Shown here one piece after another: positions 15,011 through 43,030 of a DNA stretch of 64,000 nucleotides; within the stretch, counting starts at the first letter, position 1; each line of letters begins with the position of its first letter. Below the pieces are notes generated by a model that searched no databases, was not told where the DNA came from, and saw only the letters and a list, made by a program, of their open reading frames with translations. Made by a program: the position numbers and the translations under genes. The stretch is taken from assembly GCF_053078305.1 (NCBI RefSeq), contig NZ_CP166879.1, one strand, 5' to 3'.

Positions 15011-15012
15011 CG

Positions 15013-23255: not shown

Positions 23256-23298
23256 ATGGTGAGCCGGGCTTACGGCCCGGCCCCTGCGGAGGGCAAAT

Positions 23299-24703: not shown

Positions 24704-24949
24704 ATGAAAACCATCTTTATCAAACCCGCGCCGGGACGCCTGATTCGTGATCCCGACACAATGCGCCCGCTGGCACAGGAGGGGGAGGAAAAGCCCTTCA
24801 CGCCGTTCTGGTGTCGGCGTCTTGATGACGGCGATGTCATTCAGGCTGAAAAAGCCGCTGAAGAGGCTCCGGCTGTATCTGCGGATGCAACGACTGCGAC
24901 AGAAAAACCGGTCGCCCAACCGGCATCCGATAAGGAGAAACCGCAATGA
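24704..24949 (+). CDS. hypothetical small protein
   Basis: 81 aa ORF upstream of sheath. Confidence 0.4.
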   Translation: MKTIFIKPAPGRLIRDPDTMRPLAQEGEEKPFTPFWCRRLDDGDVIQAEKAAEEAPAVSADATTATEKPVAQPASDKEKPQ

Positions 24950-26448: not shown

Positions 26449-26456
26449 GGTAACGC

Positions 26457-26822: not shown

Positions 26823-27313
26823 TCAGGAAAAATAAAATGACCACACGTAAGAAAAAAACGGCAGTTTCCGATGCCGCCGTGATGGAGGCAATCCGGGAAG
26901 CACTTGAGGGGGCTGATCCACGCACTGCCGGGCTGACAGAGCAACTGGCAAAGGGATATGTGGATCTGCTTGATGGTCTGCCGTTTGGTGAGACCCGTGA
27001 ATATCGTGTCACGTTCCGGGAACTGACTGCGAAAGACAGTATTGACGCAGAAGCAGAAGCCGAGCGCGTGGTGGAGACAAACAATGGCCCGATGCTGATA
27101 GCGTCTCCGTCGTTACGCGGTGTTGCACTGCTGCGCCGTCAGATTGCCGCAGTGGGAGACATTGAGGGTCCGTTGTCACCCCGTCAGATTGGGCGGTTAA
27201 GCGAGCGCGATCTCTCCCGCCTGATGGCAGCGGTCAGCCTGCTGGATACCGCGCTTGCCGGAAAGCTGGCTGCTGACCGGGGGCGATCAGGCGCAGTGTC
27301 GGGATCAGATTGA
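26819..27313 (+). CDS. tail assembly chaperone-like protein
   Basis: 164 aa ORF between tube and tape measure. Confidence 0.5.
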   Translation: MIRKNKMTTRKKKTAVSDAAVMEAIREALEGADPRTAGLTEQLAKGYVDLLDGLPFGETREYRVTFRELTAKDSIDAEAEAERVVETNNGPMLIASPSLRGVALLRRQIAAVGDIEGPLSPRQIGRLSERDLSRLMAAVSLLDTALAGKLAADRGRSGAVSGSD

Positions 27314-27437
27314 AGAAGCGGCAATTATCCTGGGGATGGTGACAAAAAGCGGCCCGGAATGGGCGCTTAACCTCCCCCTGTCGCAACTTTACCGGCACTG
27401 CCGACAGACAGAAAAAATCATCAGAACGAAGCAGTAA
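27255..27437 (+). CDS. overlapping ORF downstream of chaperone (possible frameshift extension)
   Basis: 60 aa ORF in the +1 frame overlapping the chaperone 3' end and ending just before the tape measure start. Confidence 0.3.
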   Translation: MPESWLLTGGDQAQCRDQIEEAAIILGMVTKSGPEWALNLPLSQLYRHCRQTEKIIRTKQ

Positions 27438-27439
27438 GT

Positions 27440-29515
27440 ATGGCCCGAAATCTCAGAGCATCTCTGATAGTTGATTTGCTCGGCAATATCTCAGCCAAAT
27501 CCCGCCAGTGGTCTCAGGAGCTGGGGGCATTCTCACGCTCCGGCCAGGCGGGGCTGGGTGGTCTGGGAAATGCTGCCCGCCGTGCCGGGCAGGAAACAGA
27601 TGTACTCGGAAGCAGGATGCAGCGCACGCTGGCCGGGGTGCGGGGCAGTATCCGCCATGTCACTTCTGATTTTGACCGTCTTCAGGGCAGTATTACCGGC
27701 ACCATCGGGCGGATCAGCAATCTTTACGGAATGCTGGCCGGTGGTGCTGCTGTATATGGCTTTAACCGGGGATTTATTCGCCCGGCAGCGGAGATGGAAA
27801 CCTATATGATTCGCCTGAACTCCCTTTACAAAGGGGATCGGGCGAAAACGGATGATGTCCGCAGGTGGGCAATACAGAATGCGAAGGAAACCACCTGGGG
27901 GCTGGCTGGCGTCATGCAGGAATATACGTCCAGTCTGGGCTTTGGTATGAGTGACAGGGAGGCCCGAAATTTTGTCACCATGCTTCAGGATCAGGGTGCC
28001 GTGGGCGGCTGGTCACTGTCCGATGCACAGGGGGCATCCCTGCAACTGAAACAGATGTATGCAAGAGGCAGTATTCAGGCGGCGGATGCAAATATTCTTG
28101 CCACCTACGGCATTAATGCCTACCGCGTGCTGGCTGATCGTCTGGGTGTGGACCAGAAAGTGGTCAGAAAACTTGGTGAAAAAGGGCTGCTTGGGCCGGA
28201 CAGTATTCGCCTGTTATTTCAGACGCTGGCGGAACAGGCCAGGGGAGCACAAAAGGACGCAATGAATTCCTGGAGTGGCCTGACGGCCATGATGGGTGAC
28301 GTCTGGGACCAGTTTGCCCGGGATGTGATGGACAGTGGGCCATTTGAAAAACTGAAGGGTAATCTCAGGGGATTTCTTTCATGGGTTGACAGTGCCAAAT
28401 CTGATGGCAGTTACCATTCCCTGGCGGAAAGCACGGCATCAGCCATGAACCAGGGCTTTGAGTATGCCCGTGATGCAGTGACAGGGTTTTATCAGGCGAT
28501 CAGAAAGGTACGCGACACGCTTCAGGCTCTGCGGGATGCGGGCTATGGTGATGCGCTGGATCGCATTGGTCAGGGGGCACAGACTGCCGCGAAATACCTG
28601 CTGTACATGTATCTCGCCACCCGTGCCCTGAAAATGGCGCGGGCTGTCGGAACGGGGATTATACGTCCGGGTGCTGCATTGCTGGGATACGGATTATCAG
28701 CGGCGGCCTTCCTGACTTCACCTTTCCGGCGCTCTCCTCCGGCCGGAACACCACCAGGCACATCTCAGGGACGAGGGCAACGTTTTATGAACTTTCTTAC
28801 CGGGGTAAATCCGGCAGCCGTTCAGCCAGTGCTTGTAACAAACTGGCCCGCAGGAGGACTGTCCGGCACCGGCGCGACCGATACATCCTCAGGCGGACGT
28901 CAGGGACGGGGCCGCAGGAAACGCGGACCGGGGCGCGGAAGACCGGTCACGCCTCCCCTGCCACCGTCCCCTGTACCACCGTCGCCCTCTTCTGGTGGGT
29001 CAGGGTTCTGGGGGCGCATGATGGGGCGCGCCGGTGGGTTGCTTTCGTCTGCCGGTAACCGCATGGGACTGGGGCGTTTCTCCGGCTTTTTCCGCAGTGC
29101 CGGTGGACTGGCTGGACGGCTGGGTGGCGGTGCCCTGTGGGCTGGCGCGATGGCAGCCCCGGTTCTGCTGGATGGCAGCGCCAGTATCACAGACAAGGGA
29201 GAAGCGGTCGGCTCTCTTGCAGGCAGTATTGCCGGTGGTGCGCTGGGGGCGGCAGCCGGACCTGTGGGGATTGCCATTGGTTCTACGGTGGGCAGCTATC
29301 TCGGTAACTATCTGGGGGGGTGGCTGACTGAAGCCTGGCAGAAATTACGGGGCAGTGATAATGAAAGCAGTGGACAGGCGGTACAAAAAGCCTCTGCCCG
29401 TGTGGAGCTGGTTGCCCCGGAAGGGTGGCAGGCTCGCAGTATTGATATTGATGACACGTCCGGTCACGGACTGGATGTGAATGTCTGGAACGGAGGGAAT
29501 TATGGCCTCTGGTGA
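27440..29515 (+). CDS. tail tape measure protein
   Basis: 691 aa with Gly/Ala/Pro-rich low-complexity region, typical size and position. Confidence 0.8.
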   Translation: MARNLRASLIVDLLGNISAKSRQWSQELGAFSRSGQAGLGGLGNAARRAGQETDVLGSRMQRTLAGVRGSIRHVTSDFDRLQGSITGTIGRISNLYGMLAGGAAVYGFNRGFIRPAAEMETYMIRLNSLYKGDRAKTDDVRRWAIQNAKETTWGLAGVMQEYTSSLGFGMSDREARNFVTMLQDQGAVGGWSLSDAQGASLQLKQMYARGSIQAADANILATYGINAYRVLADRLGVDQKVVRKLGEKGLLGPDSIRLLFQTLAEQARGAQKDAMNSWSGLTAMMGDVWDQFARDVMDSGPFEKLKGNLRGFLSWVDSAKSDGSYHSLAESTASAMNQGFEYARDAVTGFYQAIRKVRDTLQALRDAGYGDALDRIGQGAQTAAKYLLYMYLATRALKMARAVGTGIIRPGAALLGYGLSAAAFLTSPFRRSPPAGTPPGTSQGRGQRFMNFLTGVNPAAVQPVLVTNWPAGGLSGTGATDTSSGGRQGRGRRKRGPGRGRPVTPPLPPSPVPPSPSSGGSGFWGRMMGRAGGLLSSAGNRMGLGRFSGFFRSAGGLAGRLGGGALWAGAMAAPVLLDGSASITDKGEAVGSLAGSIAGGALGAAAGPVGIAIGSTVGSYLGNYLGGWLTEAWQKLRGSDNESSGQAVQKASARVELVAPEGWQARSIDIDDTSGHGLDVNVWNGGNYGLW

Positions 29516-30851
29516 CGGTCGTGGTGCGTTCCGTGGTGTGCCGTTCCTCGTCTGGCGTGAGCAGCGCGAACGTGGCGGGCGAAACATTGTCCGTCGGGAA
29601 TATCCGTTACGGGAAACCGGTGGAGCAGACGATCTGGGACCTAAACTGGCTGAATTTACGTTCAGTGTACTTGTGATGGGGGATGATGTTCAGACGCAGC
29701 GAAATCGTCTGCGTGATGCCCTTCGTGCTCCCGGTGCCGGGGAGCTGCTTCACCCGGATTACGGCACGTTAAATGTGCTGATAAACAGCTTTGAAAGTCG
29801 TTATAACGCCGCTGAACAGGGCGTGGTTGAGTTCACCATTAATGTCACGCCGGTAAGTGATGATACCGCACCTGCTGTCACACAGGACACGGCCGCCATT
29901 CTGGAGCAGAAGAGTACCACCGCGCTCGGGCAGGTTTTTGAAACCCTGGAAGCGGGCTGGACGGTGATTTCTGACGGAATGCACGATGTCCAGGCAATGA
30001 CCGAAACCATCAGCGATAAGGTGTCCGCCCTGGAAAATGCCGTTTCCGGCATGGGGATTGTGCAGGATATCAGTGCCTTTACTGCCACGTTCACGGCGCT
30101 GAAAGGGAATGCCACGGCATTACTGACAGCACCTTCCCGCATGGCCTCATCTTTTGCGGGGCTTTTCAGTGCCCTGATCACCCTGCCATCGCTGCCGTCA
30201 CTGTCTTCAGGAGGCCTGAATACCCGGCCCGGTGGCAGTATCGGCCGGACGACATCCGCCGTCTATCAGGGAATGCCGCAACTGTACAGGACATTATCTT
30301 CCCTGCGTTACGTGCTGGATGAGCAGGATAATCCGCAGACTCTCATCGGTCTGACACCGGCAGCACAAAAGAATATTCGTCTGATACGGGCGGTAATGCA
30401 GAGTGCTGCCGTGGTGGCCCAGGCACAGACCGTGGGAAAACTGCTGGATCAGGTTCTCAGTCAGGAAACCCTGCCGGATAGTGACGCAGCCCACCGTACC
30501 TGGCCTGTCTGGCTGGAAAGTTCAGTCGATCTTCAGCGCATTAACCGTGACTTAAGCGAAGCGCTCGAACGGCAGGTGATGACACTGTCCGGGCAGGGGT
30601 ATACCGCCACGGCGCTGACGCTTCGTGATGCCAGACTGGCACTGACAGAGGATCTGAATACACGGGGAGTTCAGCTACCCGGTGCAACAGTAGTGACTGT
30701 ACGTACCACCGAGCCTGCACTGGTGACCCTGTACCGTGCCACCGGGAACAGTACCGGCTGGCAACGTTTTGTGCGCCGTAACGGTATTGTTGATCCGCTG
30801 TTCATTCCCGGAGGCCATTCAGTGGAGGTGATTAGTGAGCAGCAGGGTTGA
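29481..30851 (+). CDS. DNA circularisation protein (Mu N-like)
   Basis: 456 aa ORF following the tape measure. Confidence 0.7.
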   Translation: MSGTEGIMASGDGRGAFRGVPFLVWREQRERGGRNIVRREYPLRETGGADDLGPKLAEFTFSVLVMGDDVQTQRNRLRDALRAPGAGELLHPDYGTLNVLINSFESRYNAAEQGVVEFTINVTPVSDDTAPAVTQDTAAILEQKSTTALGQVFETLEAGWTVISDGMHDVQAMTETISDKVSALENAVSGMGIVQDISAFTATFTALKGNATALLTAPSRMASSFAGLFSALITLPSLPSLSSGGLNTRPGGSIGRTTSAVYQGMPQLYRTLSSLRYVLDEQDNPQTLIGLTPAAQKNIRLIRAVMQSAAVVAQAQTVGKLLDQVLSQETLPDSDAAHRTWPVWLESSVDLQRINRDLSEALERQVMTLSGQGYTATALTLRDARLALTEDLNTRGVQLPGATVVTVRTTEPALVTLYRATGNSTGWQRFVRRNGIVDPLFIPGGHSVEVISEQQG

Positions 30852-31968
30852 ACTGTATCTGGGCGGTGAGATTTTTTCCGGCTGGCTGACGGTGAGTGTT
30901 CGTCGCTCTCTTGAACATCTGGCGGGCTCCTTTGAACTGGGGGTAATGATGCCCGGTGTACGCCTTCCGTCATCCGTCCGTGCCGGTCAGTCTCTGGAAT
31001 TGCGCATTGACGGTCAGCCTGTGATCACCGGCTGGCTGGATCAGGTCCGGCAGCGCATCAGCGCCACGCGTTTTCAGATCACGCTCAGCGGACGGGATAA
31101 AACCGGTGACCTGGTGGACTGTTCAGCCATTCATCCGGGCAGCCAGTGGAGGAACCGTACGCTGGAGCACATTGCTTCAGATTTGTGTGCTCCGTTCGGG
31201 GTCACGGTGCGCTGGCAGGTAAATGATGCAACGGCAGCCCGGCCCTTTTCCACCTTCACACTGGAAAACTCAGAAACCGTGGCAGATGCGCTGACACGGG
31301 CCGCGAGACACAGAGGCGTCCTGGTAACCAGTAATGCCGCCGGTGAACTGGTTTTCACTCAGGCCGGCAGTCAGCGTGGCGACACGCTGACGCTGGGCGA
31401 AAATCTGCTGGATTTGGATCACAACGTGGATCACCGTCTGCGCCACAGTGAATACCGTGTACGGGGGCACGGGCGTGGTGGTGGTCATGCCGGGGATGCA
31501 CTGACAGCCGGAACGCTGGCCGCACCCGTTGGTACGGTGACAGACAGTGCCATCCACCGTTACAGACCGAAAATTGTGCTGGCGGATCATGCTGTTGATG
31601 CAGACGGTGCACGCCAGAGGGCTGTCCGGGAAATGCGCCGGGCGGTTGCCCGCTCTGTGCGCCTGACAGCCACCGTGCGGCACTGGTTTCGGGAGAACGG
31701 CCAGTTGTGGGATATCAACCTGCTGACGGCTGTCACGGCTCCCCGCACCGGAGTGGAAGAGCGTGATCTTCTTGTCTGTCAGGTGGAGTTTTCGCTGGAT
31801 GCAAATCACGGCGAAACCACCCGTCTGATTCTGGCACCCCGTGACGGCTTTATTGTTCCGGCAGAGCCGGACAGCCGGGGAAACAGCGGAAGCGGAAATG
31901 CGGGTGATGTGGACGCCTTCGTGCGGGCACAGATGAAAAAACAGGGGATTAAATTCAATGATGAATGA
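30835..31968 (+). CDS. tail/baseplate hub protein (Mu P-like)
   Basis: 377 aa ORF in conserved order. Confidence 0.7.
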   Translation: MSSRVELYLGGEIFSGWLTVSVRRSLEHLAGSFELGVMMPGVRLPSSVRAGQSLELRIDGQPVITGWLDQVRQRISATRFQITLSGRDKTGDLVDCSAIHPGSQWRNRTLEHIASDLCAPFGVTVRWQVNDATAARPFSTFTLENSETVADALTRAARHRGVLVTSNAAGELVFTQAGSQRGDTLTLGENLLDLDHNVDHRLRHSEYRVRGHGRGGGHAGDALTAGTLAAPVGTVTDSAIHRYRPKIVLADHAVDADGARQRAVREMRRAVARSVRLTATVRHWFRENGQLWDINLLTAVTAPRTGVEERDLLVCQVEFSLDANHGETTRLILAPRDGFIVPAEPDSRGNSGSGNAGDVDAFVRAQMKKQGIKFNDE

Positions 31969-32572
31969 CGAAGTCATCAGCCGCCTTCTGGCCCCCGTGA
32001 TGCGGGGTGTTCGTCTGCTGTTCGGGCGTGGTGTACTGACCGGCACAACGGACACGCTGAAAATCCAGAATGTGCAAATCACCGGTATGGATGGTGAAAC
32101 CTTTGATGACGTTGAGCGCCCCCAGCAGTACGGGCAAATCAGCGTCCCCCTGCCTGGTGCGGAAGTTTTTCTGGCCTGTGCTGGTGGACAACGGGATCAG
32201 GCCGTGGTGCTTGTGGTGGAAGACCGCCGCAGTCGCCCGACCGGACTTACCGCCGGAGATACCGGCGTGTATCACCATGAGGGGCACCGTATACGTCTGA
32301 CAAAGAACGGCCGGATCATTGTGACCTGTAAGACGCTGGAGATTTACGCCGATGAAGGAGTTCAGGTGGATACACCGGAGGCTCACTTTACCGGTAATGT
32401 CACAGTGGATAAGAACCTGCATGTCAAAGGCAATGTGTCCATTGACGGCACCGGAAGATCACAGGGGACGTTCACGATGTCCGAAGCGGTTATTGCCGGG
32501 ATCACCTATTCAGGTCATGTGCATCACGATAACGGTGAAGGCAGCAAAACGGGAGGACCAGAGAATGGCTGA
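31958..32572 (+). CDS. baseplate assembly protein V-like (spike)
   Basis: 204 aa ORF. Confidence 0.65.
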   Translation: MMNDEVISRLLAPVMRGVRLLFGRGVLTGTTDTLKIQNVQITGMDGETFDDVERPQQYGQISVPLPGAEVFLACAGGQRDQAVVLVVEDRRSRPTGLTAGDTGVYHHEGHRIRLTKNGRIIVTCKTLEIYADEGVQVDTPEAHFTGNVTVDKNLHVKGNVSIDGTGRSQGTFTMSEAVIAGITYSGHVHHDNGEGSKTGGPENG

Positions 32573-33002
32573 TATTGCTGTCGTCTGGGATCAGGGTTGT
32601 GGTTCCCTGCAACTGAACGGCGCAGATCTTCTGACGGATAACAGCCTGCTGACTGCGGTCATTATTTCACTGTTTACGGACAGGCGGGCGCTGGATTCCG
32701 ATGAAATCCCTGACGGCACCCGTGACCGTCGGGGATGGTGGGGAGACAGTTTCCGGGAGCGCCCCATTGGCTCCCGTCTCTGGCTGTTAAGCCGTGAAAA
32801 GACGCTGTCCTCCGTGGTCAGCCGTGCACAGGCCTATGCTGATGAAGCGCTGGCGTGGCTGCATAAAAGCGGTGCTGCCACATCCGTGGTATGTCATGCC
32901 ATGCGTGTGGGGCATGATCGCCTTTCGCTTTCCGTGAAAATCACCCTGCCGGACGGAAGCAGACATCCGATGATTTTTTATGCTGATATGAAGGGGGAAT
33001 GA
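32565..33002 (+). CDS. baseplate protein (Mu gp46-like)
   Basis: Start taken at the ATG at 32565 (MADIAVVWDQ…); the longer ORF-track start lies inside the previous gene. Confidence 0.6.
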   Translation: MADIAVVWDQGCGSLQLNGADLLTDNSLLTAVIISLFTDRRALDSDEIPDGTRDRRGWWGDSFRERPIGSRLWLLSREKTLSSVVSRAQAYADEALAWLHKSGAATSVVCHAMRVGHDRLSLSVKITLPDGSRHPMIFYADMKGE

Positions 33003-34084
33003 TGCCTTATCAGCCCTTACCACTGGCGCAACTGATCACACAGACACAACAGGATATCAGCCAGCGCCTGCCCGGTTCGCAGCCGGGCGTGAATGAAACC
33101 ACCCTGAATGCCATTGCGTATGCACTGGCGGGTCTGTCAGCACAGGAGCATGAACATCTGGCCTGGATCTCCCGGCAGATAATTCCGACAGAAGCTGATG
33201 AAGCCGAACTCCTGAAACACTGCGCATTCTGGGGTGTCATCCGTAAACCGGCTTCCCGCGCTGACGGACCGGTACAACTGATGCTGACCACGGATGCAGG
33301 GATCACGGAAGGCGTACTCCTTCAGCGAAGCGATGGTGTTGTGTACCGCATCACCGGCTCTGCGACCGGAAAAGCCGGAACACTGAATGTTAATGTGGAG
33401 GCGGAAAGTGCGGGGCGCGCTGGAAATACCCCGACCGGAACCCGCCTGTCCTTTATCACGCCACAGGCGGGCATCAACCAGACAGCCACGGTCACCGGCA
33501 CGGGACTCACCGGTGGTGCGGATGTGGAAACGGTGCCGGAGTTGCTGTCCAGGCTGGTATTCCGGGTACAGAACCCGCCATCAGGGGGAACACAGTATGA
33601 TTTTGAACGCTGGGCACGGGAAGTACCGGGCGTGACGCGGGCATGGTGTAAGCCTGAATGGCCTGAGGCGGGTAGTGTTGGTGTGACTTTTGTTCAGGAT
33701 AATAACCCTGACATTTTCCCCGGAGAAGGTGATGTGAAGCGGGTGGCGGATTATATCCGCAGTCATGATGATCCGGCGACGGGCCAGCCCGTTGGTCAGC
33801 CACTTGGGCCGACAATCAGCGTGTTTAAGCTGACCAATAAGTCGGTGGCGTTTGAGATCAGGATTGTACCCAAAACGCCGGAAAATCAGGCTGCCGTAAA
33901 ACAGGCATTAACGGACCTGCTTTATAACGAATCGCGGCCGGGTGGACTTGTATTGCCTTCATCATTCTGGCGGGCTGTTGCAGGGGTGAAAGGACTGGAG
34001 GATTTTGAAGTTCGCAGTCCGCTGAAGTCCGTGATGGCCGGAGATACAGAGTTGCTGACCGTGGGGGAAATCACATGGCTGTAA
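32999..34084 (+). CDS. baseplate J-like protein (Mu gp47-like)
   Basis: 361 aa ORF. Confidence 0.7.
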   Translation: MMPYQPLPLAQLITQTQQDISQRLPGSQPGVNETTLNAIAYALAGLSAQEHEHLAWISRQIIPTEADEAELLKHCAFWGVIRKPASRADGPVQLMLTTDAGITEGVLLQRSDGVVYRITGSATGKAGTLNVNVEAESAGRAGNTPTGTRLSFITPQAGINQTATVTGTGLTGGADVETVPELLSRLVFRVQNPPSGGTQYDFERWAREVPGVTRAWCKPEWPEAGSVGVTFVQDNNPDIFPGEGDVKRVADYIRSHDDPATGQPVGQPLGPTISVFKLTNKSVAFEIRIVPKTPENQAAVKQALTDLLYNESRPGGLVLPSSFWRAVAGVKGLEDFEVRSPLKSVMAGDTELLTVGEITWL

Positions 34085-34632
34085 CCCTGACCCCGCATCA
34101 GCGCGCCCTGTTGCAGTTGCTGCCTGACGGGCTGGCATGGGATAAGCGGCCGTCATCCGTTCTTGCAGCTTTGTGCCTGGGCCTCAGTCATTCCACGGAG
34201 CGTGTTTCCTGGACCGGTAACCAGATGCTGGCAGAACGTTTTCCTGATTCATCCCGTCTGCTGCTGGAAGACTGGGAGCGTTATCTGGGGTTGCCGGAAT
34301 GTGATATGACCGGCGCAACCATTCAGGAACGTCAGCGTTATGCCGGGAATAAATACCGGATGAAACCCTCTCTTAACCGTGAATTTTATATCCGGTTTGC
34401 GGCTGAGTTTGGTTATGAAATAGATATCCAGCCATCACCGGAATCACAATGGATCAGTATTGTGACAGTGAAGACGGCGGTGGGATACCGTCACATGAAT
34501 GTACTGGACGATATTCTTACACCACTGCGAATTTATGATGCAAGTGCGCTGGAGTGCATTTTAAACCGTTATAAGCCAGCCTGGCAGACGTTTTTATATC
34601 TGTACGAAAACAGTCATGAGGAGACGGAGTAA
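34075..34632 (+). CDS. tail protein (Mu gp48-like)
   Basis: 185 aa ORF directly upstream of the tail fibre. Confidence 0.6.
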   Translation: MAVTLTPHQRALLQLLPDGLAWDKRPSSVLAALCLGLSHSTERVSWTGNQMLAERFPDSSRLLLEDWERYLGLPECDMTGATIQERQRYAGNKYRMKPSLNREFYIRFAAEFGYEIDIQPSPESQWISIVTVKTAVGYRHMNVLDDILTPLRIYDASALECILNRYKPAWQTFLYLYENSHEETE

Positions 34633-35543
34633 TGTATTTTGTCGACAACAATTCAGGTGTGACCGATATGCCACCACTGGCCCCCTCTCAGGGTACGCAG
34701 GTTAAATGGTTTACTGAAGGTGACGGACGCAAAGGGATCAGCCATATCGGTCAGGACTGGCTGAACATCGTGCAGGCAGAGCTGCTTGCCATTCTGACAG
34801 AAGGAAAGGTTCAGCCGGATAAGGCAAAACTGAACCAGCTGGTGACAGCCATTAAGGCAATCATTGCAGCAAACGCATACAGCCGGAAAAACAACCTTAA
34901 GGAGATTGCGGATGCAGGTGCAGAAGCACAGGCTGCTGCCCGCCGTCATCTGGGGCTGGGAGGATTATCAGGAAAAGACAGTCTGGCTGCTGCTGATGTG
35001 GGAGCACTGGAGAAATCCCGGAATTTTGACGATGTACCGGATAAACCGACGGCCCGCCTGAATCTTGATGTTTACAGTAAGGGAGAAGGCGATGAGCGTT
35101 ATCTGCGCAGGGACCAGAATGGCGCGGATATCCCGGACAAAGGAACCTTTATCGATAACCTCGGTTTACGGGAAACGGTAAATAAGGCTGCTGATGCCCT
35201 GCCATCGGGTGGAACCGCCGTGGCAGCGAATAAACTCGCCACCCCAGTAAATATTAATGGCGTTCCTTTCGACGGAACGCAGGATATCAACATCACGTCA
35301 GGAATGACGCAGTCAACCGCAGATGGCCGGTATGTACAGAATGTTCAGCTTGGAGCACAGAGCTATCATTCACCCGGAGGCAATGAAATGTCATGGAATT
35401 ACAGCGCACCTTCCGGTTGTATGCTTTCCGGTATTAACGTGCAGGAAACCGGCTCCCGGTCTGCGGACAATATCGGTGGGGTCTATTATCGCCCGGTTCA
35501 GATTTATATTAATAATGCCTGGAGAACGGTAAGTTCAGTGTAA
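34632..35543 (+). CDS. tail fibre protein (constant part plus current variable C-terminus)
   Basis: 303 aa; its 3' third overlaps the left inverted repeat of the invertible segment, and its C-terminal ~75 aa are homologous to the inverted fragment at 36179-36400. Confidence 0.75.
   Translation: MYFVDNNSGVTDMPPLAPSQGTQVKWFTEGDGRKGISHIGQDWLNIVQAELLAILTEGKVQPDKAKLNQLVTAIKAIIAANAYSRKNNLKEIADAGAEAQAAARRHLGLGGLSGKDSLAAADVGALEKSRNFDDVPDKPTARLNLDVYSKGEGDERYLRRDQNGADIPDKGTFIDNLGLRETVNKAADALPSGGTAVAANKLATPVNINGVPFDGTQDINITSGMTQSTADGRYVQNVQLGAQSYHSPGGNEMSWNYSAPSGCMLSGINVQETGSRSADNIGGVYYRPVQIYINNAWRTVSSV
35157..35300. repeat. left inverted repeat of tail-fibre invertible segment
   Basis: Perfect 144 bp inverted copy of 36399-36542, checked base by base. 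Confidence 0.85.
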
Positions 35544-35577
35544 ACCACAGAAAAGGGTGCTGAATGCACCCTCTGAA

Positions 35578-36099
35578 TTATTCCGGTTTTTCCGGCCAGG
35601 GAATCGCCTGGTAATGCCCCTCACTGGCAATATCATTAAAGTGCATTTCTTTAAGCTGTCGGATATACGCCATCCAGCGCGTCAGCTGTAATTTATTTTC
35701 ATCGCTAATCATGTCCAGTTTTAATTCCGTTTTCCAGTCATCCACAGTTTCGTTGGCTTCCTGGAGCAGCGATGAGCGGCGCTTTTCAGCAACCGTCTTC
35801 CAGTTTACCGGCACCTTTGATATCAGGCCATCAGAAAACTGCCAGTTACCGTCAATATCCACACCTTCCGGCAGTTCGTCCACTTCAACAACAGTAAAAC
35901 CTGCCGGATATAAAGCAGAGACATCTTCAGCAACAGAGCAGATAATACCCGTTACAGGCGAAATACAGAGTTTGTATTTCTTTGTGAAAAGCGGGAGAGA
36001 TTCATAAAAATCCCTTCCGTCCTCACTCTGGAAATACTGAACATCCTCACCATAGGGTTTGTGTTCCGGGTAATATCGTTTTACGTTAATAAGCTCCAT
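35578..36099 (-). CDS. tail fibre assembly chaperone (U'-like)
   Basis: 173 aa from the ATG at 36099 with AGGTG SD; C-terminal …ISDENKLQLTRWMAYIRQL…PWPEKPE matches the Tfa/U family. Confidence 0.75.
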   Translation of the reverse strand: MELINVKRYYPEHKPYGEDVQYFQSEDGRDFYESLPLFTKKYKLCISPVTGIICSVAEDVSALYPAGFTVVEVDELPEGVDIDGNWQFSDGLISKVPVNWKTVAEKRRSSLLQEANETVDDWKTELKLDMISDENKLQLTRWMAYIRQLKEMHFNDIASEGHYQAIPWPEKPE

Positions 36100-36178
36100 T
36101 ATTTCACCTTGTTTTTGTTGAAAAGACAAAATCATCATATATTTATTCAGATAATCTGTTTTTTGAACTACTGCACTT

Positions 36179-36542
36179 TTATGCGCTGGAAGCTGTTTTC
36201 CACGAACCATTTATCAGAAACTGAACAGGGCGATAATATGCGGTTACCGTTGCATTACCATCACCAGCGACATCAAGCCCTGTAAGTACGCATCCGTCAG
36301 GAACTTCAAAAATATTATATTGCATTCCAATCGTTGACCTTGAACCTCTTCGAATGCTTTGAACATAACGTGAGTCAGCCACAGACTGCGTCATCCCCGA
36401 TGTAATATTGATATCCTGCGTTCCGTCGAAAGGAACGCCATTAATATTTACTGGGGTGGCGAGTTTATTCGCTGCCACGGCGGTTCCACCCGATGGCAGG
36501 GCATCAGCAGCCTTATTTACCGTTTCCCGTAAACCGAGGTTT
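36179..36542 (-). other. alternative tail-fibre variable C-terminal segment (promoterless, usable after inversion)
   Basis: Reverse-strand coding segment homologous to the C-terminus of 34632-35543 (AANKLATPVNINGVPFDGTQDINITSGMTQS…YYRPVQ…), ending at the stop at 36179. Confidence 0.65.
36399..36542. repeat. right inverted repeat of tail-fibre invertible segment
   Basis: Perfect reverse complement of 35157-35300. Confidence 0.85.
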
Positions 36543-36603
36543 CAGGGATGTCGTATATCTGCTTTAAAAGGCATTTTCACCTCTTTTTAAGGAAGGTAAA
36601 TAC

Positions 36604-37164
36604 ATGCTGATTGGCTATATACGCGTATCAACAAATGACCAGAACACAGGTTTACAAAGAAATGCGCTGGAATGTGCAGGATGTAAGCTGATTTTTGAAG
36701 ATAAAATGAGCGGAAAAACAACGCAGCGGCCGGGACTGAAGCGGGCACTGAAGAAACTAAAACCCGGTGACACGCTGATGGTCTGGAAACTGGACAGGCT
36801 GGGGCGCAGTATGCGCCACCTTGTTGCGCTGACAGATGAATTACAGCAACAGGGGATAAATTTTCGTAGTCTTACTGACAACATTGATACGTCAACCCCC
36901 ATGGGGCGCTTCTTTTTTCACATAATGGGTGCGCTGGCAGAAATGGAGCGTGAATTGATTGTCGAACGGACACGGGCTGGTCTTGCAGCTGCCCGTGAAA
37001 GGGGACGAACCGGTGGCAGACCCCGTCGTCTCACGCAGGAACAATACGAGCAGGTCGGGCGTTTACTGGCCGGGGGTGTCAGCCGAAGACAGGTGGCACT
37101 TATTTTTGATATCGGCCTTTCAACCCTTTATCGTTATTATCCTGCAAGCATTTCGGAAAAATAA
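36604..37164 (+). CDS. gin: Gin/Hin/Pin-family serine DNA invertase
   Basis: 186 aa starting MLIGYIRVSTNDQ… with resolvase catalytic domain and C-terminal HTH, adjacent to the inverted repeats. Confidence 0.9.
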   Translation: MLIGYIRVSTNDQNTGLQRNALECAGCKLIFEDKMSGKTTQRPGLKRALKKLKPGDTLMVWKLDRLGRSMRHLVALTDELQQQGINFRSLTDNIDTSTPMGRFFFHIMGALAEMERELIVERTRAGLAAARERGRTGGRPRRLTQEQYEQVGRLLAGGVSRRQVALIFDIGLSTLYRYYPASISEK

Positions 37165-37254
37165 GACGCTCCCTTTGTTGGGCCTTTACTGAATTAACGC
37201 AAAATGGCGTTTATCGGTCTGTGGATATGATAATTCTGTTTATTCAGGAACAGG

Positions 37255-39312
37255 ATGAATATTATGACGTCCAAATGGGTTCAACTATCATCAATGCCCG
37301 GAAACTTTACCGTTAAAGTTTCCGGTGGTACAGCGGCATTTCTTGAGGCTCCTTTTCCTCCGGCTGAAACGAAAGGAGGAATGACATTTGCTGACTGTCT
37401 CATCAGTTTTAATACACAGGATTGCCTGTGGGTAAGGCCAGTATCCGGTGATCCGAACGTGGAAATTACCGGAGCGGGTATTGGTGCTGTCATTCCGTTA
37501 AGTGCTGATGTTGCCGGTACTACTGAACCGTCAGACTGGGATAATGCTGAAACACATACCCGTCCGGCAGGAAATGAAACGGCTTCCAGCTCCCCTTCCT
37601 GGTATTACGTGATTGTTATAGCCGGTCAGTCCAATGCTTCATCTTATGGTGAAGGGTTGCCCCTGCCGGATTCTTATGATCGTCCTGATCCACGTATTAT
37701 GCAGCTGGCACGCAGGAATACACAAACCCCCGGAGGTATTCCCTGCAAATACAATGAAATCATTCCAGCAGATCACTGCCTTCATGATGTTCAGAATATG
37801 AGTCTGCTGAACCATCCAAAAGCAGACCTGAAAAAAGGGCAGTATGGTTGTGTGGGTCAGGGACTTCATATTGCGAAAAAAGTATTACCGGTGATTCCTG
37901 CTGATGCCGGGATTTTACTGGTTCCCTGTGCCCGTGGCGGCTCTGCTTTTACAACCGGCGCAGTTGGCTCATTCGATCCGGCAAGTGGTGCAGCCGAGGC
38001 GTCACTACGCTGGGGAGTGGATACCCCACTGTATCAGGATCTTGTCAGTCGAACGAAAGCGGCACTTGAGGCGAATCCAAAGAATGTGCTGTTATCTGTC
38101 GTATGGATTCAGGGGGAAGGAGACCTTAAAGCGACCCCGGCCCAGCATGGTGCCCAGTTTACTGCGATGGTGAAAAAATTCCGTGCGGATCTTGGTGCTT
38201 TCTCCGGTCAGTGTATTGGTGGTTCATCAGACAGTGTGCCGTGGTTATGTGGTGACACAACCTATGACTGGAAAGAGAAGAACCCGGCGGCATATGAAAC
38301 CATTTATAGCGGATATAAAAACCGGGCTTCCGAGAACATTCACTTTGTTCCACTGATGCACGATGAGTTCGGTAATAAAACCGCGACCAACCTGCCGGAG
38401 CACGACCCGGATATCGCTTCTGCCGGGTATTATGGTGCGGAATCACGGGGAGATGGCAACTGGACAACAGCATCCAGGGCAACCCATTTTAGCTCCTGGG
38501 CGCGCCGTTTTCTGGTCTCAGATCGTTTTGCATCAGCAATTCTTAAATATGCAGGTCTGACCTCTGCATTTATTGCCGGTGTGGCCCCTGATGGTGAAGC
38601 CCTGCCTCAGCCCGCGCCGGGTGGAAAACCGGAAGCTCCGACAGGTAGTCAGCCAGGAAGCAGTGAGTCCCCCCAGCCGACATCCCCGTCACTCCGTACG
38701 CTGCTTTCACTTAAAGCATCAGCAGGGGAAGCCCCGGCTCAGGGATGGAAAATTACAGATGGTACAATCCAGCTGACGGACGAAGGTAAAGCGCTGACCG
38801 TATCCAAACAAAGCGGAAAAACCTGGTCACTTACCCATGCGACCAGTGCTGCCGGAGAGCTGTTGCAGCATGGTGGTCAGTTGACCTGTAAATTCCGTCT
38901 GTCAGGTGAAGTAAAAGAAGGCCAGTTTGCTCTGGGTATTTACCTCCACACCGATACGGTCCCGGAAGGTGTAACCATGAGTGGTACAGGCACACCGTTC
39001 CTGATGGCGTATTATCTCCAGACAACAGGCGGCCAGTTAAATCTGATGCACCATAAAACAGGGGGGAATACGAAACTGGGATCATTTGGAGCCTACAATA
39101 ACCAGTGGCATACACTTGTCCTGAAGTTTACGGCGGGAAGTGCCCAGGTAACGCCTGTGCTGGATGGCACTCCGGGCCAGGCATTCCAGATGGTGAAAGA
39201 TGCACTTTCCCCTGCCAAAGATACGCTGACACTGACAGATGTCACCAAAGGGGCAACTTATGGCGTGTCTTTTGAGAGCGTTGTCCTTGAGGTTAATACC
39301 CCTGCGGCATAA
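37255..39312 (+). CDS. NanS-like SGNH esterase (putative 9-O-acetyl sialic acid esterase) with C-terminal extension
   Basis: 685 aa; residues ~115-430 closely resemble recalled E. coli NanS/YjhS (YYVIVIAGQSNASSYGEGLPLPDS…DTPLYQDLVSRTKAAL…CGDTT…DRF); ~250 aa extra C-terminal domain. Confidence 0.7.
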   Translation: MNIMTSKWVQLSSMPGNFTVKVSGGTAAFLEAPFPPAETKGGMTFADCLISFNTQDCLWVRPVSGDPNVEITGAGIGAVIPLSADVAGTTEPSDWDNAETHTRPAGNETASSSPSWYYVIVIAGQSNASSYGEGLPLPDSYDRPDPRIMQLARRNTQTPGGIPCKYNEIIPADHCLHDVQNMSLLNHPKADLKKGQYGCVGQGLHIAKKVLPVIPADAGILLVPCARGGSAFTTGAVGSFDPASGAAEASLRWGVDTPLYQDLVSRTKAALEANPKNVLLSVVWIQGEGDLKATPAQHGAQFTAMVKKFRADLGAFSGQCIGGSSDSVPWLCGDTTYDWKEKNPAAYETIYSGYKNRASENIHFVPLMHDEFGNKTATNLPEHDPDIASAGYYGAESRGDGNWTTASRATHFSSWARRFLVSDRFASAILKYAGLTSAFIAGVAPDGEALPQPAPGGKPEAPTGSQPGSSESPQPTSPSLRTLLSLKASAGEAPAQGWKITDGTIQLTDEGKALTVSKQSGKTWSLTHATSAAGELLQHGGQLTCKFRLSGEVKEGQFALGIYLHTDTVPEGVTMSGTGTPFLMAYYLQTTGGQLNLMHHKTGGNTKLGSFGAYNNQWHTLVLKFTAGSAQVTPVLDGTPGQAFQMVKDALSPAKDTLTLTDVTKGATYGVSFESVVLEVNTPAA

Positions 39313-39584
39313 TCGTGACGGCCGGGAATTTATCCGGCTGTAACATCAGTTAATAAGAGTGAGGCTTATATGACATATATAAACGTCTGCCTGCTGTATT
39401 TCTGCACGGTGGTTTGTTGTCTGTTGCTTGTCAGCGGTGGTTATAAAATTATTCGCAATTATTTTCGAAATAAAATTGATGCAGCTGCCGAGGAAAAGAT
39501 AAAAAGCGGTGCTGTAATGCCGCAGCCGAAAGACTCCGGTCAGATTTAATTTTTTGTGAACCAGAAAAGGAAAGGAGAATATTC

Positions 39585-39830
39585 ATGCCAGAGATTAAAG
39601 GCACGGTTACTGAAGAGCTTGTCAAACAGGCACTTTATTCTGAAGAAGTGAACCGCGTGCTGAAGGCGCAGGTTCGCAAGGATTTTGAGGCACAAATCGA
39701 CGCATATGTTGATGAAGTGCTGGCCCGAATGGTTGGCCATTCTCCGGCTGAAAACAGCACGGAGAATGAGCCTCAGCCCGTAGAGCAACCAGAGCCGGTT
39801 CAGCCCGGAACTGACAGTGCCATGATGTAA
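39585..39830 (+). CDS. hypothetical small acidic protein
   Basis: 81 aa ORF with strong SD AAAGGAAAGGAG upstream. Confidence 0.4.
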   Translation: MPEIKGTVTEELVKQALYSEEVNRVLKAQVRKDFEAQIDAYVDEVLARMVGHSPAENSTENEPQPVEQPEPVQPGTDSAMM

Positions 39831-39904
39831 CAATACAAACCGACAGCTTCTCCTGTCGGTTTGATTTTCATGGGCGATGTATATACCAGTCAGAGGAAAT
39901 AATC

Positions 39905-40105
39905 ATGGACAAGAACAAAAAGCAGCCCGATACCAAAGGTCTGGAAATATTAAGCGCAGAAATTATCAATGCGCTACGTTCAGGACTTGATGAAAATACA
40001 TTACAGGATCGAAACTTCACCACTGCAATGTGGATAGCGATGCAGATCCTGTGTACCCCAAGATGCGCTATTTTTGCGGTTCGTGAGGGTCAGTTGACTC
40101 GCTGA
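39905..40105 (+). CDS. hypothetical small protein
   Basis: 66 aa ORF, weak support. Confidence 0.3.
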   Translation: MDKNKKQPDTKGLEILSAEIINALRSGLDENTLQDRNFTTAMWIAMQILCTPRCAIFAVREGQLTR

Positions 40106-40298
40106 TTGCCCGAATTACATCAGAAAAGCACGCGTTCCATAATTGCATAGCTGATGAATCACCAGCTGTATGAAAAGAGGTAAAGACACAACTGGTGGAT
40201 GTCATTGCTGCAATTGTGATATCAGCTGCAATTCGCGCAGCCTGTAACTTTTGGTCGGTGGTCAGTTTATCCATTTTCTCCTGCCTGAACAGATGCAT
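40068..40298 (-). CDS. hypothetical small protein
   Basis: 76 aa ORF on the opposite strand overlapping the previous ORF; only one of the two is likely real. Confidence 0.25.
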   Translation of the reverse strand: MHLFRQEKMDKLTTDQKLQAARIAADITIAAMTSTSCVFTSFHTAGDSSAMQLWNACFSDVIRAISESTDPHEPQK

Positions 40299-40529
40299 CT
40301 CTGCTTTACAGGAGGCCGGGGAATATCATAGGATACACCACGAGCTCAGAGTGAAGCATTGATGCAGTTTTTTACAGATTGACCCAGAATAGTTCGCGCT
40401 ATCTGAGTCGCCATTTATGTAGTCCCGAAGTAAAGCATTGATGCAAACTTGTCTAAATCGGCCCAGCATAGTTCCAGCTATGCTGGGTTTCCCTTTTATG
40501 TAGTATCCTGTTGATTTGAAACATACTAC

Positions 40530-40760
40530 ATATACGCGCGATCCTACCTTCACTGGATAAAAAGTCAATAAAATGATCATTTTATGATCGTTTTCACCAC
40601 CTAACTCTTCGTTTTCTTTAAGTAAATAATCACCGCCCTGAATCATTGTTGATGACTTTTCAATCTATTTGTTGTATCAATTAAACAAATCGAATCGATC
40701 GTTTTTGTCGATCGATTGCATGAGAAAGGCATCAACAACAAAGCAGGAGGTTATGCGGCC
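40530..40760. promoter_or_regulatory. putative mom operon control region with clustered Dam (GATC) sites
   Basis: GATC at 40540, 40575, 40586, 40697 and 40710 within ~180 bp upstream of com; Dam-regulated mom promoter in Mu is established knowledge. Confidence 0.45.
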
Positions 40761-40961
40761 ATGTATCGAAACATACGGTGCCGACACTGCAATAAGCTAC
40801 TGGCACGGGCCAGTTTCAGTTATCTGGAAGTAAAATGTCCGCGCTGTAAAACCCTCAATCAAATCACATCTCCGAGCGCCACAGAGCACCCCACATACAC
40901 AAGGAAATCCTGTCGTGGGGAACAGAAAGCAAGTCACATCCCGTATCATCAGCACGCCTGA
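40761..40961 (+). CDS. com: Com-like zinc-finger translational activator
   Basis: 66 aa from the ATG at 40761: [14 protein letters not shown]…[10 protein letters not shown], two CxxC pairs as in Mu Com; 3' end overlaps the mom start. Confidence 0.7.
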
Positions 40962-41652
40962 ACTTATTCGCTATAACGACAATATCGTTGGTTATGGTTC
41001 CCGTGAGTTGCGGGTTGAGACAATAAGTTGCTGGCTGGCCAGACTGGTTATCGTCAATAAACATTACAGCCACCGTTTCGTAAATAACTCCTACCTTCAT
41101 CTGGGCATATTTTCAGAACGGGAACTTGTTGGCGTAATGCAATGGGGTTACGCCCTTAACCCAAACAGTGGTGCACGCGTCGTAACGGGTACGCAGAACC
41201 GAGAATATATGGAGCTGAACCGGCTATGGATGCATGACTGTATGCCGAGAAACTCCGAATCAAGGGCAATCAGTTACGCGCTCAAGCTAATCAGGCAGCT
41301 TTATCCGCAGGTACAGTGGGTTCAGTCGTTTGCAGATGAGCGTTGTGGCTGTCTTGGTGTCGTGTATCAGGCAAGCAATTTTGATTATGTAGGCAGCCAT
41401 GAAACAATATTCTATGAACTTGATGGCGAGTGGTATCACGAGATTTGCAGGAATGCCATTAAACGAGGCGGACAACGAGGTGAACATCTGAGGGCTAATA
41501 TCGACAGAGCCAGTGTGCATAAGTTCCGACAGTTTCGTTACATCCGGTTTCTGAACAAGAGGGCCAGAAAACGCCTCAACACAAAGCTATTCAAAGTCCA
41601 GCCTTACCCAAAACCACAAACAGTTAAAACTGGTTTGAAAGAGAGTGAATGA
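40915..41652 (+). CDS. mom: Mom-like DNA modification protein
   Basis: 245 aa ORF (GTG start) overlapping com and located at the right phage end, the Mu com/mom arrangement; function by position and architecture. Confidence 0.6.
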
Positions 41653-41710
41653 GCGCTTAAAAACTCATTCTAAAACTCAAAAGAAAAGCGCCGATTTAGT
41701 ATCAAATAAG

Positions 41711-41764
41711 TTGCGTATCGGCGTTTTTCAGCGGTATCAAATGAAATGCAAATCGGTATCAAAA
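41711..41764. repeat. right-end transposase-binding repeats (attR-like)
   Basis: CGTATCGG (41714-41721), GCGGTATCAAA (41731-41741), TCGGTATCAAA (41753-41763), inverted relative to the left-end copies. Confidence 0.6.
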
Positions 41765-43030
41765 AAATCGCCGCGCTATACCCACCAGACTCATTCCTGC
41801 CCAGCCTACAGGACTCAGGTTACCGTAAAGAATGACCGCCAATATTGCCAGTCCACCCCATTGCAAAAAAGTATCAGGCCGGTAAAACGAAGACTTTTTA
41901 CGCGGCAGATAAAATTTCTGCATCCGTAAAAATGCCCTGCGTAAGACTCTGTTGCGTCTCCCCGTAAGAACGACCTTATCGCCTTTACGAAATAACGCTT
42001 CCAGTAATAACTGCTCTGCGGGCAGTAATACCTCATTATTTCTGGTCGCGCCTTCATTAACACGAATCAGGATTTGCTGGTTCTTATCATACTGATCTTC
42101 CAGATGAATTTTTCCTTTCACAATCAGATTTACGATATCGGCACAAAACCCTTTATCGTCGTAAACCAGCTTCGCATCGAGACGTAACATGCCGGGCGTG
42201 TAATCTGGCGGAATGACATCGGTTTCAATCACATCTACCGGCGTAAATTGCGGCCTGCGCTTCCAGAGATATAACCATCCACAAACCAGGAATAGACACG
42301 GAAACCAAATTAACAACGATGACGTGGAGGGTAAAAGAAGATGGCTGAAAATATTCGTCGTTTGTGGAGCCGGGGCATTGCTAAGTAACGAGTGAGGCCA
42401 ACGGTAGAGGACCGTGAAATCTTCACGATAAAACGGATCGCTGGATTCAATTCTTCCGTCCTCAAGGATGCGGCCATTTCGATATGTGTCGCCCTCTTCT
42501 CCAGTAAAGAGATCGATTTCGCTAAATGGATTACCCGCGATATCAGGGAACTTGAGTGAAAATCGGGTCTTATAGATTTCAAACGGCCAGTGGTTACCAG
42601 TCACGTTCCAGATTAACAGATCTGAATCTCCCTCACGCAGGAAAGCATTTTTAACCTGATAATGAATTTGATAATGATAGTCGCCTTGGGGCAAGAAACG
42701 TTGTTTATCGCCCACGACAATACTCATTAACCCGATATGCCAGTCAAGATGCCAGGGTTCAGGAATACCATCACGGGTTACGCCAACAATATGATAGTTC
42801 AGCAGTGCTGCGTCCCCATCAGGCTGCATCCAGAGTCGTGGTAAATCACGATAAAATCCGTGCTTAATCTGCTGATTTCGCGCCTGAAAATGAATGTTCT
42901 CTTTGATGTCGAGCACCCCATCCGGTTGCAGAGTGGCTTCAGAAGGGATCTCCGTGTTTTCTGCATAACTTAGAGATGATACAAACAGCCCTGCTATCAA
43001 CAGCAAAATGCAGCGAAACTTCCCTGCCAT
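41759..43030 (-). pseudogene. yciQ: yciQ 5' fragment (N-terminal part), truncated by the prophage; stop codon formed at the junction
   Basis: 423 aa ORF with signal peptide whose TGA (41759-41761) lies inside the phage terminal motif. Confidence 0.75.

Follow-up and report, generated by a model that had tools for sequence, protein, structure and literature searches.

A Probable NanS-p-Family Sialate O-Acetylesterase as a Fixed Component of Sp18-Type Mu-like Prophages of Escherichia coli

The Esterase Gene and Its Setting

The 64,000-nucleotide stretch of DNA analysed here (contig NZ_CP166879.1 of assembly GCF_053078305.1, referred to below as the window) contains a Mu-like prophage of the type represented by Sp18 of Escherichia coli O157:H7 Sakai. 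At the right end of this prophage, between the DNA invertase gene gin and the DNA modification genes com and mom, an open reading frame (ORF) on the plus strand (37255..39312) encodes a protein of 685 amino acids (aa). According to the best explanation, to which a probability of about 0.72 is assigned, this protein is a three-domain sialate O-acetylesterase of the NanS-p family and a fixed component of Sp18-type Mu-like phages, which would be made late, released at lysis, and possibly carried on virions. A preliminary description of the window had placed such an ORF beside gin and com/mom of a Mu-like prophage; the 685-aa ORF is present as described, and gin (36604-37164) and com/mom (40761-41652) do flank it.

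The whole protein matches phrog_143 in PHROGs (E 1.5e-273), and the UniProt entry A0AAW4EZG5 ('Sialate O-acetylesterase', 685 aa) is 100% identical over the aligned N-terminal region. In databases, the gene appears under the names 'DUF6645 domain-containing protein', 'sialate O-acetylesterase' (RefSeq, UniProt), and 'hypothetical protein'. NCBIfam gave no match for the whole protein and PADLOC none for the three proteins of the module to which the gene belongs, so that a role in defence is unsupported. The codon at 37255 is ATG in the window and CTG in the Sp18-type copies; the alignment of all alleles begins with the second ATG, at 37264 (MTSKW...). For this reason, translation probably starts at this conserved codon, which would give a protein of 682 aa. 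Coordinates of all features are collected in Table 1.

Domain Architecture of the Protein

The central part of the protein closely resembles the chromosomal esterase NanS (YjhS). Residues 108-432 match the NanS structure (PDB 3pt5_A) with E 3.6e-110 and an identity of 176/321 residues (55%), and Pfam places a SASA domain at residues 119-315. The GQSNA motif occupies residues 124-128, and in the 3pt5 alignment Gln125, Ser126, and His411 fall on Gln18, Ser19, and His301 of NanS (the codons of Ser126 and His411 lie at 37630-37632 and 38485-38487). In NanS, Gln18 is the oxyanion-hole residue and Ser19 and His301 are catalytic, while the Asp of the triad is naturally missing (PMC9063846). Judged by this alignment, the central domain keeps the nucleophile Ser126, the oxyanion-hole Gln125, and the base His411, which bears out the earlier recognition of a NanS/YjhS-like core with GQSNA. 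Block IV reads RATH in the window protein, and the published NanS-p proteins show the variants RSSH, RASH, and RPTH (PMC10462455). The fold and the Ser, His, and Gln residues are thus held in common with chromosomal NanS; unlike the window protein, NanS is a single-domain protein of ~326 aa, encoded on the chromosome as part of the nan regulon.

The C-terminal part belongs to a different domain family. The crystallised NanS-p C-terminal domain (6yp6_A) aligns with residues 481-682 (E 1.2e-42), and Pfam finds DUF6645 at residues 537-647 (E 1.5e-25). These matches identify the C-terminal domain as the lectin-like jelly-roll of NanS-p proteins. Three of the four aromatic residues proposed to bind carbohydrate in the phi24B protein stay aromatic here, as mapped from the alignment. 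The domain search proposed in the preliminary description therefore returned SASA for the core and DUF6645 for the C-terminus. The extra C-terminal region of ~250 aa noted there exists, although it is composed of a ~45-aa linker and a ~205-aa domain; an extra N-terminal domain of ~85 aa, with its ~30-aa linker, had not been singled out.

The N-terminal domain sets the protein apart from its lambdoid relatives, for which examples are 933W z1466/L0105, phi24B vb_24B_21/gp84, and YYZ-2008 gp42. Homology between lambdoid alleles and the window protein begins only at residue ~115. The comparator YYZ-2008 gp42 consists of DUF1737 (E 2e-15), SASA, and DUF6645, whereas in the window protein an unrelated all-beta domain of ~80 aa replaces DUF1737. 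Pfam searches with the full-length protein and with the N-terminal domain by itself detected no DUF1737, even at E <= 10, and no Pfam family of any kind matched that domain. The AlphaFold 2 (AF2) model is all beta, with a predicted local distance difference test (pLDDT) score of ~80 at residues 6-74, and differs from the reported fold of DUF1737, a helix with three strands.

Relatives of this domain appear to be small phage proteins. The profile of phrog_4772, a family of stand-alone 79-aa phage proteins with no assigned function, matches the window domain with E 0.0038 (profile positions 11-77 of 79) and the N-terminal domain of a Salmonella homologue with E 6.8e-6 (positions 9-78 of 79). This points to a possible relationship with phrog_4772, at the level of a match of E 0.0038. 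A Foldseek search of AFDB50 likewise returned stand-alone, uncharacterised enterobacterial proteins of 75-83 aa with template modelling (TM) scores of 0.65-0.75, one of which is named 'phage tail protein', and in BFVD the matches were small uncharacterised phage proteins (best E 0.007).

Sequence searches with the domain led to few other proteins. A HMMER scan of 1.84 billion representatives gave only five matches, comprising two E. coli-like fragments, the Salmonella homologue, one identical fragment of 26 residues, and one low-complexity repeat protein, which was discounted as such. In a word-indexed protein search, the window domain retrieved E. coli fragments only and the Salmonella domain only itself. 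When both domains were compared by tblastn with 50,697 phage records, only two Stx (Shiga toxin) phages were found, each containing a nested Mu-like phage. A local hidden Markov model (HMM) of the domain detected no paralogue in the prophage, in phage Mu, or in the other loci compared. The 81-aa protein resembling Mu gp38 (24704-24949), considered as a stand-alone relative, was ruled out by its sequence character and the lack of an HMM match. On the basis of these searches, the N-terminal domain is specific to the Mu-like lineage, where it substitutes for DUF1737.

The domain is under purifying selection. Compared with the Sp18 allele, the ratio of nonsynonymous to synonymous substitution rates (dN/dS) is 0.10. 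Between the two types of this domain found in the lineage (A, as in the window, and B), the proportion of nonsynonymous differences (pN) is 0.23 with saturated synonymous sites, at an amino acid identity of 57-60%.

In its other features, the window protein follows the lambdoid NanS-p plan. Common to both are the SASA/SGNH type II core with its GQSN, QGE, and R-x-x-H blocks, the DUF6645 C-terminal domain, linkers rich in Pro and Ser, the lack of a signal peptide, the location on a prophage, and probably late expression. Genes for DUF1378 and DUF826 proteins also lie 3' of the esterase gene in both; in Stx phages they stand between nanS-p and the holin gene (PMC10462455). The setting differs, since the window gene is located between gin and com/mom of a transposable myovirus rather than between stx/Q and holin. 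By sequence, the window gene is NanS-p-like, in another phage chassis and with another front end.

Presence across the Sp18 Lineage

The distribution of the gene was surveyed in 5,426 complete E. coli genomes. The com/mom genes of the lineage were found in 232 genomes, at 281 places, and MuA at a coverage of at least 80% in 232 genomes. The N-terminal coding region is of type A in 204 genomes (242 places) and of the diverged type B in 28 genomes (39 places). The sums of the two types, 232 genomes and 281 places, equal the com/mom counts exactly. The module of nanS-p, DUF1378, and DUF826 is present in effectively every copy of the Sp18 lineage and is fixed there. The suggestion that this prophage had acquired the gene as unusual cargo is not supported by these counts, as the gene is universal at this position within the lineage (281 = 242 + 39).

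The gene order gin, nanS-p, DUF1378, DUF826, com, mom was seen in every copy inspected, namely those of O91:H21, O157:H7, the mouse strain M1, AST198, a Mu-like phage nested in a Stx2c phage, and Sakai Sp18; the M1 copy is without gin. In Sakai Sp18, the gene is ECs_4993, annotated 'hypothetical protein'. All of the IMG/VR loci recovered with the N-terminal domain (34/34) share the Mu-like context. A Salmonella enterica Mu-like prophage (GCA_037428405) carries an N-terminal domain of 28% identity fused to a GQSN esterase, 3' of gin, on a contig that ends 153 codons into the nanS-like gene. The same domain is also present in a 777-aa Salmonella 'sialate O-acetylesterase' of AFDB.

Outside the lineage, the module can be missing. 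Phage Mu shares with the window the order and orientation of gin, com, and mom, but has only 94 bp between gin and com, so that the 3.55 kb found here, with three plus-strand genes and a degenerate minus-strand ORF, represent an extra module. In E. coli RM9088, which carries a more distant Mu-like prophage (MuA ~80% identical in nucleotides (nt)), the tail fibre region leads straight to com/mom. Comparison of right ends, as envisaged earlier, therefore gives a divided answer: the module is missing from Mu and RM9088, while it is present throughout the Sp18 lineage and, in a divergent version, in Salmonella. Any acquisition must be old according to the lineage-wide presence and dN/dS, with the gene kept under purifying selection since. 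The RM9088 prophage (NZ_CP042298: 2663552-2670448) lacks gin as well as the nanS-p module, and its mom is interrupted by nested IS21-like and IS66 insertion elements.

The earlier statement that prophage nanS-p genes are described mainly on lambdoid phages agrees with the searchable literature, which places them in Stx and other lambdoid-type prophages. No paper linking nanS-p, acetylesterase, or DUF6645 with Mu-like phages was found in the searchable full-text literature.

Rearranged copies were also met. In one rearranged Sp18-type prophage arrangement, nanS-p is split, with the 5' piece beside gin and the 3' piece beside an integrase fragment and copies of IS66. This arrangement occurs on plasmid pO177A1 (NZ_CP024617) and in NZ_CP027591, that is, in one chromosome and one 88.9-kb plasmid record; the latter also has espP and the chromosomal genes dusA and pspG. 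Two apparent non-Mu contexts, considered as donors of the diverged cassette described below, proved to be such rearranged Mu-like prophages with the gene split beside the integrase fragment.

Exchange of the Esterase Cassette

The window allele and Sakai ECs_4993 agree in position, architecture, and flanking DUF826, com, and mom. They are only 60% identical overall, and amino acid identity declines along the protein, from 96% in the N-terminal domain (3-4 substitutions) to 67% for the esterase and 41% for the C-terminal domain. At the nucleotide level, the window is 97% identical to Sp18 up to ~37600; beyond that point identity is 76%, until it rises again to ~100% at ~39600. The proportion of synonymous differences (pS) is 0.10 in the N-terminal domain and ~0.75 elsewhere, while dN/dS is ~0.1 in both the N-terminal domain and the esterase. 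The drop and recovery of identity, together with the contrast in pS, indicate that a cassette comprising the esterase, the lectin-like domain, and DUF1378, from residue ~116 onwards, has been replaced. Its left junction coincides exactly with the boundary between the N-terminal domain and the esterase, at the 3' end of the linker.

The window allele is a minority allele. At least 80% of the gene is present in 37/5,426 genomes, with at least 98% identity among the matches listed. Genome and phage searches found no donor more than 90% identical outside Mu-like contexts. Nucleotide identity to any lambdoid allele is 67-70%, and amino acid identity in the esterase is 64-68%; no DNA similarity to lambdoid phages was detectable for DUF1378 and DUF826. 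The C-terminal domain shares 60% identity with the lambdoid YYZ-2008 type, to which it is closer than to the Sp18/phi24B type. Taken as a sequence pattern, the N-terminal domain goes with the type of phage, and the esterase and lectin parts are shuffled.

A Putative Late Promoter

The gene is preceded by a motif that suggests late expression. Late promoters of phage Mu have a conserved C-site element instead of a -35 element, a -10 element of the form TAnnnT, and are activated by the C protein. In the window, the regions upstream of lys (12957) and of the protease/scaffold gene I (21135), which are the positions of the C-dependent promoters Plys and PI of Mu, share CTGAWATYCCGCAAARCC, followed after 20 nt by TAnnnT. 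Phage Mu has a related element at this position in both promoters, ATCCCGCACCTGCC in Plys and TTCCCGCACCTCCC in PI. The window was scanned on both strands with a 15-nt core taken from the lys and I sites only, allowing at most 3 mismatches and requiring a correctly spaced TAnnnT. Three sites pass in the 64 kb, those of lys, I, and nanS-p, compared with a mean of 0.52 in shuffled sequences. A generic sigma-70 scan of the region found 7 sites against 7.9 expected, which is no better than chance.

The motif is retained where its surroundings are not. In type-B prophages it persists with 1 mismatch in a spacer that has otherwise diverged, and strain M1 keeps it without gin. The gene may accordingly be read, by inference from this motif, as a C-dependent late gene under a promoter of the Mu late type, unlike the pR' promoter of lambdoid phages. 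Lambdoid nanS-p is expressed late, from pR' (PMC8065619), and late expression here would be parallel to it. If the promoter is indeed C-dependent, it would define a fifth late transcription unit in this Mu-like lineage. In Salmonella enterica GCA_037428405, the region 5' of the nanS-like gene (9900-10000 of the locus compared) contains CACTATTATTCCGTGCCACAC, which resembles CACCATAATCCCGCACCTGCC of Mu Plys. The element CACTATTATTCCGTGCCACAC hints that the late-promoter association may be older than the E. coli lineage.

Function and Alternative Explanations

The proposed mechanism combines these elements. Transcription from the putative C-dependent late promoter would supply the esterase together with the lysis and morphogenesis proteins, and lysis of the induced cell would bring it into contact with extracellular substrate. 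No hydrophobic N-terminus, signal peptide, or transmembrane segment was found in the 685-aa protein, so that the enzyme should reach sialoglycans only after lysis or on the particle. It would then remove 7-, 8-, and 9-O-acetyl groups from sialic acids, such as 5-N-acetyl-9-O-acetylneuraminic acid (Neu5,9Ac2) and those of mucin glycans, as lambdoid NanS-p does. The benefit may be access to sialic acid for sibling lysogens, an advantage for the phage in mucus, or both. Lambdoid NanS-p de-O-acetylates Neu5,9Ac2 and mucin glycans and enables growth on Neu5,9Ac2 (PMC8065619, PMC8319020).

Several points weigh against this explanation. The equality of 281 with 242 plus 39 is one of aggregate totals, not of a place-by-place pairing. 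Substrate specificity is extrapolated from proteins that are about 55-68% identical; in the C-terminal domain, F611 of phi24B falls in a gap and Y510 is replaced by Phe. The putative promoter of nanS-p departs from the 15-nt core at 3 positions, among them the CC of CCGC, and reading the core as a C-protein site draws on positional analogy with phage Mu. The N-terminal domain has no significant match to a structure of known function: its Foldseek hits in the PDB were weak and cupin-like, all with E >0.04, and a PDB profile search gave nothing.

A sharper version of the preferred explanation, rather than an alternative to it, holds that the esterase is anchored to the head or tail of the Mu-like particle through its N-terminal beta domain, as it is through DUF1737 in phi24B. 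The NanS-p of that phage (gp84) was reported as an abundant capsid decoration protein bound via DUF1737, forming a hexamer on the central hexon, and as full-length on fresh virions with later processing near SSP motifs (bioRxiv 10.64898/2026.04.10.717836). Since the N-terminal domain occupies the position of this capsid-docking DUF1737, replacing it precisely, it is the strongest candidate for a module that would attach the protein specifically to the Mu-like virion. Its purifying selection, its restriction to Mu-like contexts, and the allele breakpoint at its boundary with the esterase are consistent with such a role, as are the kinship with phrog_4772 and with the 75-83-aa proteins, the late-promoter-like site 5' of the gene, and the motifs SSSP and SSESP/TSPS in the two linkers, which are like the SSP motifs proposed for gp84 processing. 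On the other hand, the fold matches are weak and lead to proteins of no assigned function, and the 57-60% identity between types A and B is well below that of baseplate J (~92%), the one structural protein compared. Moreover, the particle of phi24B, a podovirus with a T=9 capsid, is very different, and the report on gp84 is a preprint. Virion display is therefore only a tentative possibility, which the analysis rates as somewhat unlikely.

A broader view, which is more speculative still, is that NanS-p proteins are modular virion-display enzymes in which an exchangeable cassette of esterase and lectin domains is joined to a docking domain specific to the phage type. If this were true, DUF1737 would serve phi24B-like capsids and the phrog_4772-like beta domain the particles of Sp18-type myoviruses. 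Two unrelated morphotypes of gut E. coli phages would then have converged on a particle-borne sialoglycan de-O-acetylase, and allele exchange at the domain boundary would swap binding and esterase specificity while the anchor is kept.

Another explanation concerns the substrate. The esterase might act on a bacterial surface polysaccharide, for example an O-acetylated O-antigen or a capsule such as O-acetylated polysialic acid, and thereby aid adsorption or the control of superinfection. A review raised this idea for NanS-p in general (PMC8065619); late timing would suit a role at infection or release, and the module adjoins the host-range region in which tail fibres are inverted. Nevertheless, the published NanS-p enzymes act on free Neu5,9Ac2 and on mucin sialic acids, and NanS, with which the esterase core shares 55% identity, is an esterase dedicated to sialate. 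This explanation is considered unlikely.

Even less probable is that the gene is an unusual and fairly recent moron, gained at the right end of this prophage from a lambdoid phage of enterohemorrhagic E. coli (EHEC). The lack of the module in Mu and in the distant E. coli Mu-like prophage, the order nanS-p, DUF1378, DUF826 common with Stx phages, and the mosaic relation of the esterase and C-terminal parts to lambdoid alleles could be read in this way. Against it stand the presence of the module in all copies of the lineage and in the Salmonella relative, an identity of only 67-70% to lambdoid alleles with DUF1378/DUF826 lacking DNA similarity to lambdoid phages, saturated synonymous sites, and the possession of its own N-terminal domain and a conserved upstream motif. 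A recent gain is largely refuted by the counts. That the gene is an inactive remnant with no current function is highly improbable: some copies are split by rearrangement, but the ORF is intact, 37 genomes have at least 80% of the gene, with at least 98% identity among the matches listed, the catalytic residues are kept, and dN/dS is ~0.1 in the N-terminal domain and the esterase.

If the NanS-p-family explanation is correct, it would extend a known family to a new phage type without overturning current understanding. NanS-p has so far been treated as a fitness factor of lambdoid and Stx phages that supports the use of O-acetylated mucin sialic acids by EHEC. The Sp18-type family is found in about 4% of complete E. 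coli genomes and in many Shiga toxin-producing E. coli, including O157:H7 Sakai, whose Sp18 was reported intact (PMC2669165). Because this Mu-like family carries its own NanS-p, counts per strain that are based on lambdoid prophages alone miss one nanS-p. That the N-terminal domain follows the phage type is also what would be expected of a particle anchor, the role recently reported for the corresponding domain in phi24B.

Prophage Organisation and Neighbouring Genes

The features of the locus are listed in Table 1.

Table 1. Features of the Sp18-type prophage, the nanS-p module, and the encoded protein (positions in the window).
Feature	Coordinates	Strand	Evidence
Mu-like (Sp18-type) prophage, 39.3 kb, in yciQ	2443..41780	+	ORFs, end alignment, Sp18 identity
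gin-type DNA invertase	36604..37164	+	phrog_125, E 5e-94; RefSeq 'recombinase family protein' or 'DNA-invertase'
Putative Mu-type late (C-dependent) promoter: CTGAATTAACGCAAAATG, 19 nt, TATGAT	37189..37231	+	Motif and spacing common with lys and I sites
nanS-p-type sialate O-acetylesterase gene	37255..39312	+	ORF, PHROGs, PDB, Pfam, UniProt
N-terminal all-beta domain, ~residues 4-84	37264..37506	+	AF2, phrog_4772, AFDB50; without Pfam match
Disordered Thr/Pro/Ser/Asp-rich linker, residues 85-115, ending in SSSP (111-114)	37507..37599	+	pLDDT <40
SGNH type II / SASA esterase domain, residues 116-435	37600..38559	+	3pt5 alignment
Second Pro/Ser-rich linker, residues 436-480, with SSESP and TSPS motifs	38560..38694	+	Motif positions
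Lectin-like jelly-roll domain DUF6645, residues 481-685	38695..39309	+	6yp6_A, Pfam
DUF1378 small membrane-type protein, 59 aa	39370..39549	+	phrog_494, E 4e-29; RefSeq 'DUF1378 family protein'
DUF826 protein, 81 aa	39585..39830	+	phrog_311, E 9e-30; RefSeq 'DUF826 domain-containing protein'
G+C-rich bidirectional hairpin, terminator-like, closing the three-gene module	39836..39863	both	11-bp stem, 6 GC pairs; consensus match only
com and mom, DNA modification operon	40761..41652	+	phrog_1384 (Mom-like), E 9e-84; RefSeq near-identical copies

The prophage displays all features of the Mu-like Sp18 type, namely c/ner, MuA, MuB, gin with an invertible segment, com/mom, and varied insertion sites with conserved ends. 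The c repressor, ner, MuA, and MuB lie at the left end, and gin, the nanS-p module, and com/mom at the right end. The right end is the point at which five independent insertions, aligned with one another, pass from identical sequence into different flanks; the left end is the TG at 2443, and CCCA is found on both flanks (2438-2447, 41776-41790). The insertion splits yciQ into 1823-2473 and 41759-43030 on the minus strand. Only 4 flank bases match at the prophage ends, and the target duplication expected for Mu is 5 bp. The depositors of LC727881 likewise annotated a 4-bp duplication for their Mu-like phage.

Outside three patches, the prophage is 96-98% identical to Sakai Sp18 in nucleotides. 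The variable patches are the immunity region, 38066-39571, and 39859-40426. The esterase gene begins 90 bp 3' of gin. Within the operon at the other end of the module, com corresponds to the ORF 40716-40961 with a RefSeq-style start at 40761, and mom to 40915-41652. The degenerate minus-strand ORF of the gin-com interval lies 3' of the three plus-strand genes. A second variable patch relative to Sp18 (39859-40646, minus strand) holds two shorter ORFs, 40326-40646 and 40068-40298; their Sakai counterpart is the intact 154-aa ECs_4996 (phrog_26524, function not assigned), and in several strains the corresponding gene carries a frameshift according to RefSeq.

Further observations concern other parts of the prophage. 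An invertible G-like segment (35157-36541), bounded by 182-nt inverted repeats that are 91% complementary, lies inside the tail-fibre coding sequence. When the segment lies as in the window, its minus strand carries the only tail-fibre assembly gene (35578-36210) together with an alternative fibre C-terminus (36179-36478); the segment is flipped in strain FWSEC0008. In the head-gene region, the ORF 23299-23730, directly 3' of the major head gene, encodes ~14 Ala-Glu dipeptide repeats (AEAEAE...) by means of a hexanucleotide tandem repeat. Finally, a Dcm-type C5 cytosine methyltransferase (350 aa, GTPCQAFS) replaces mom after com in some Sp18-type phages, for example in the Mu-like phage nested in the Stx2c phage LC727881 (11235-12486 of the locus compared) and in another com/mom match. 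Because this methyltransferase stands instead of mom in such phages, the modification gene 3' of com appears to be exchangeable.

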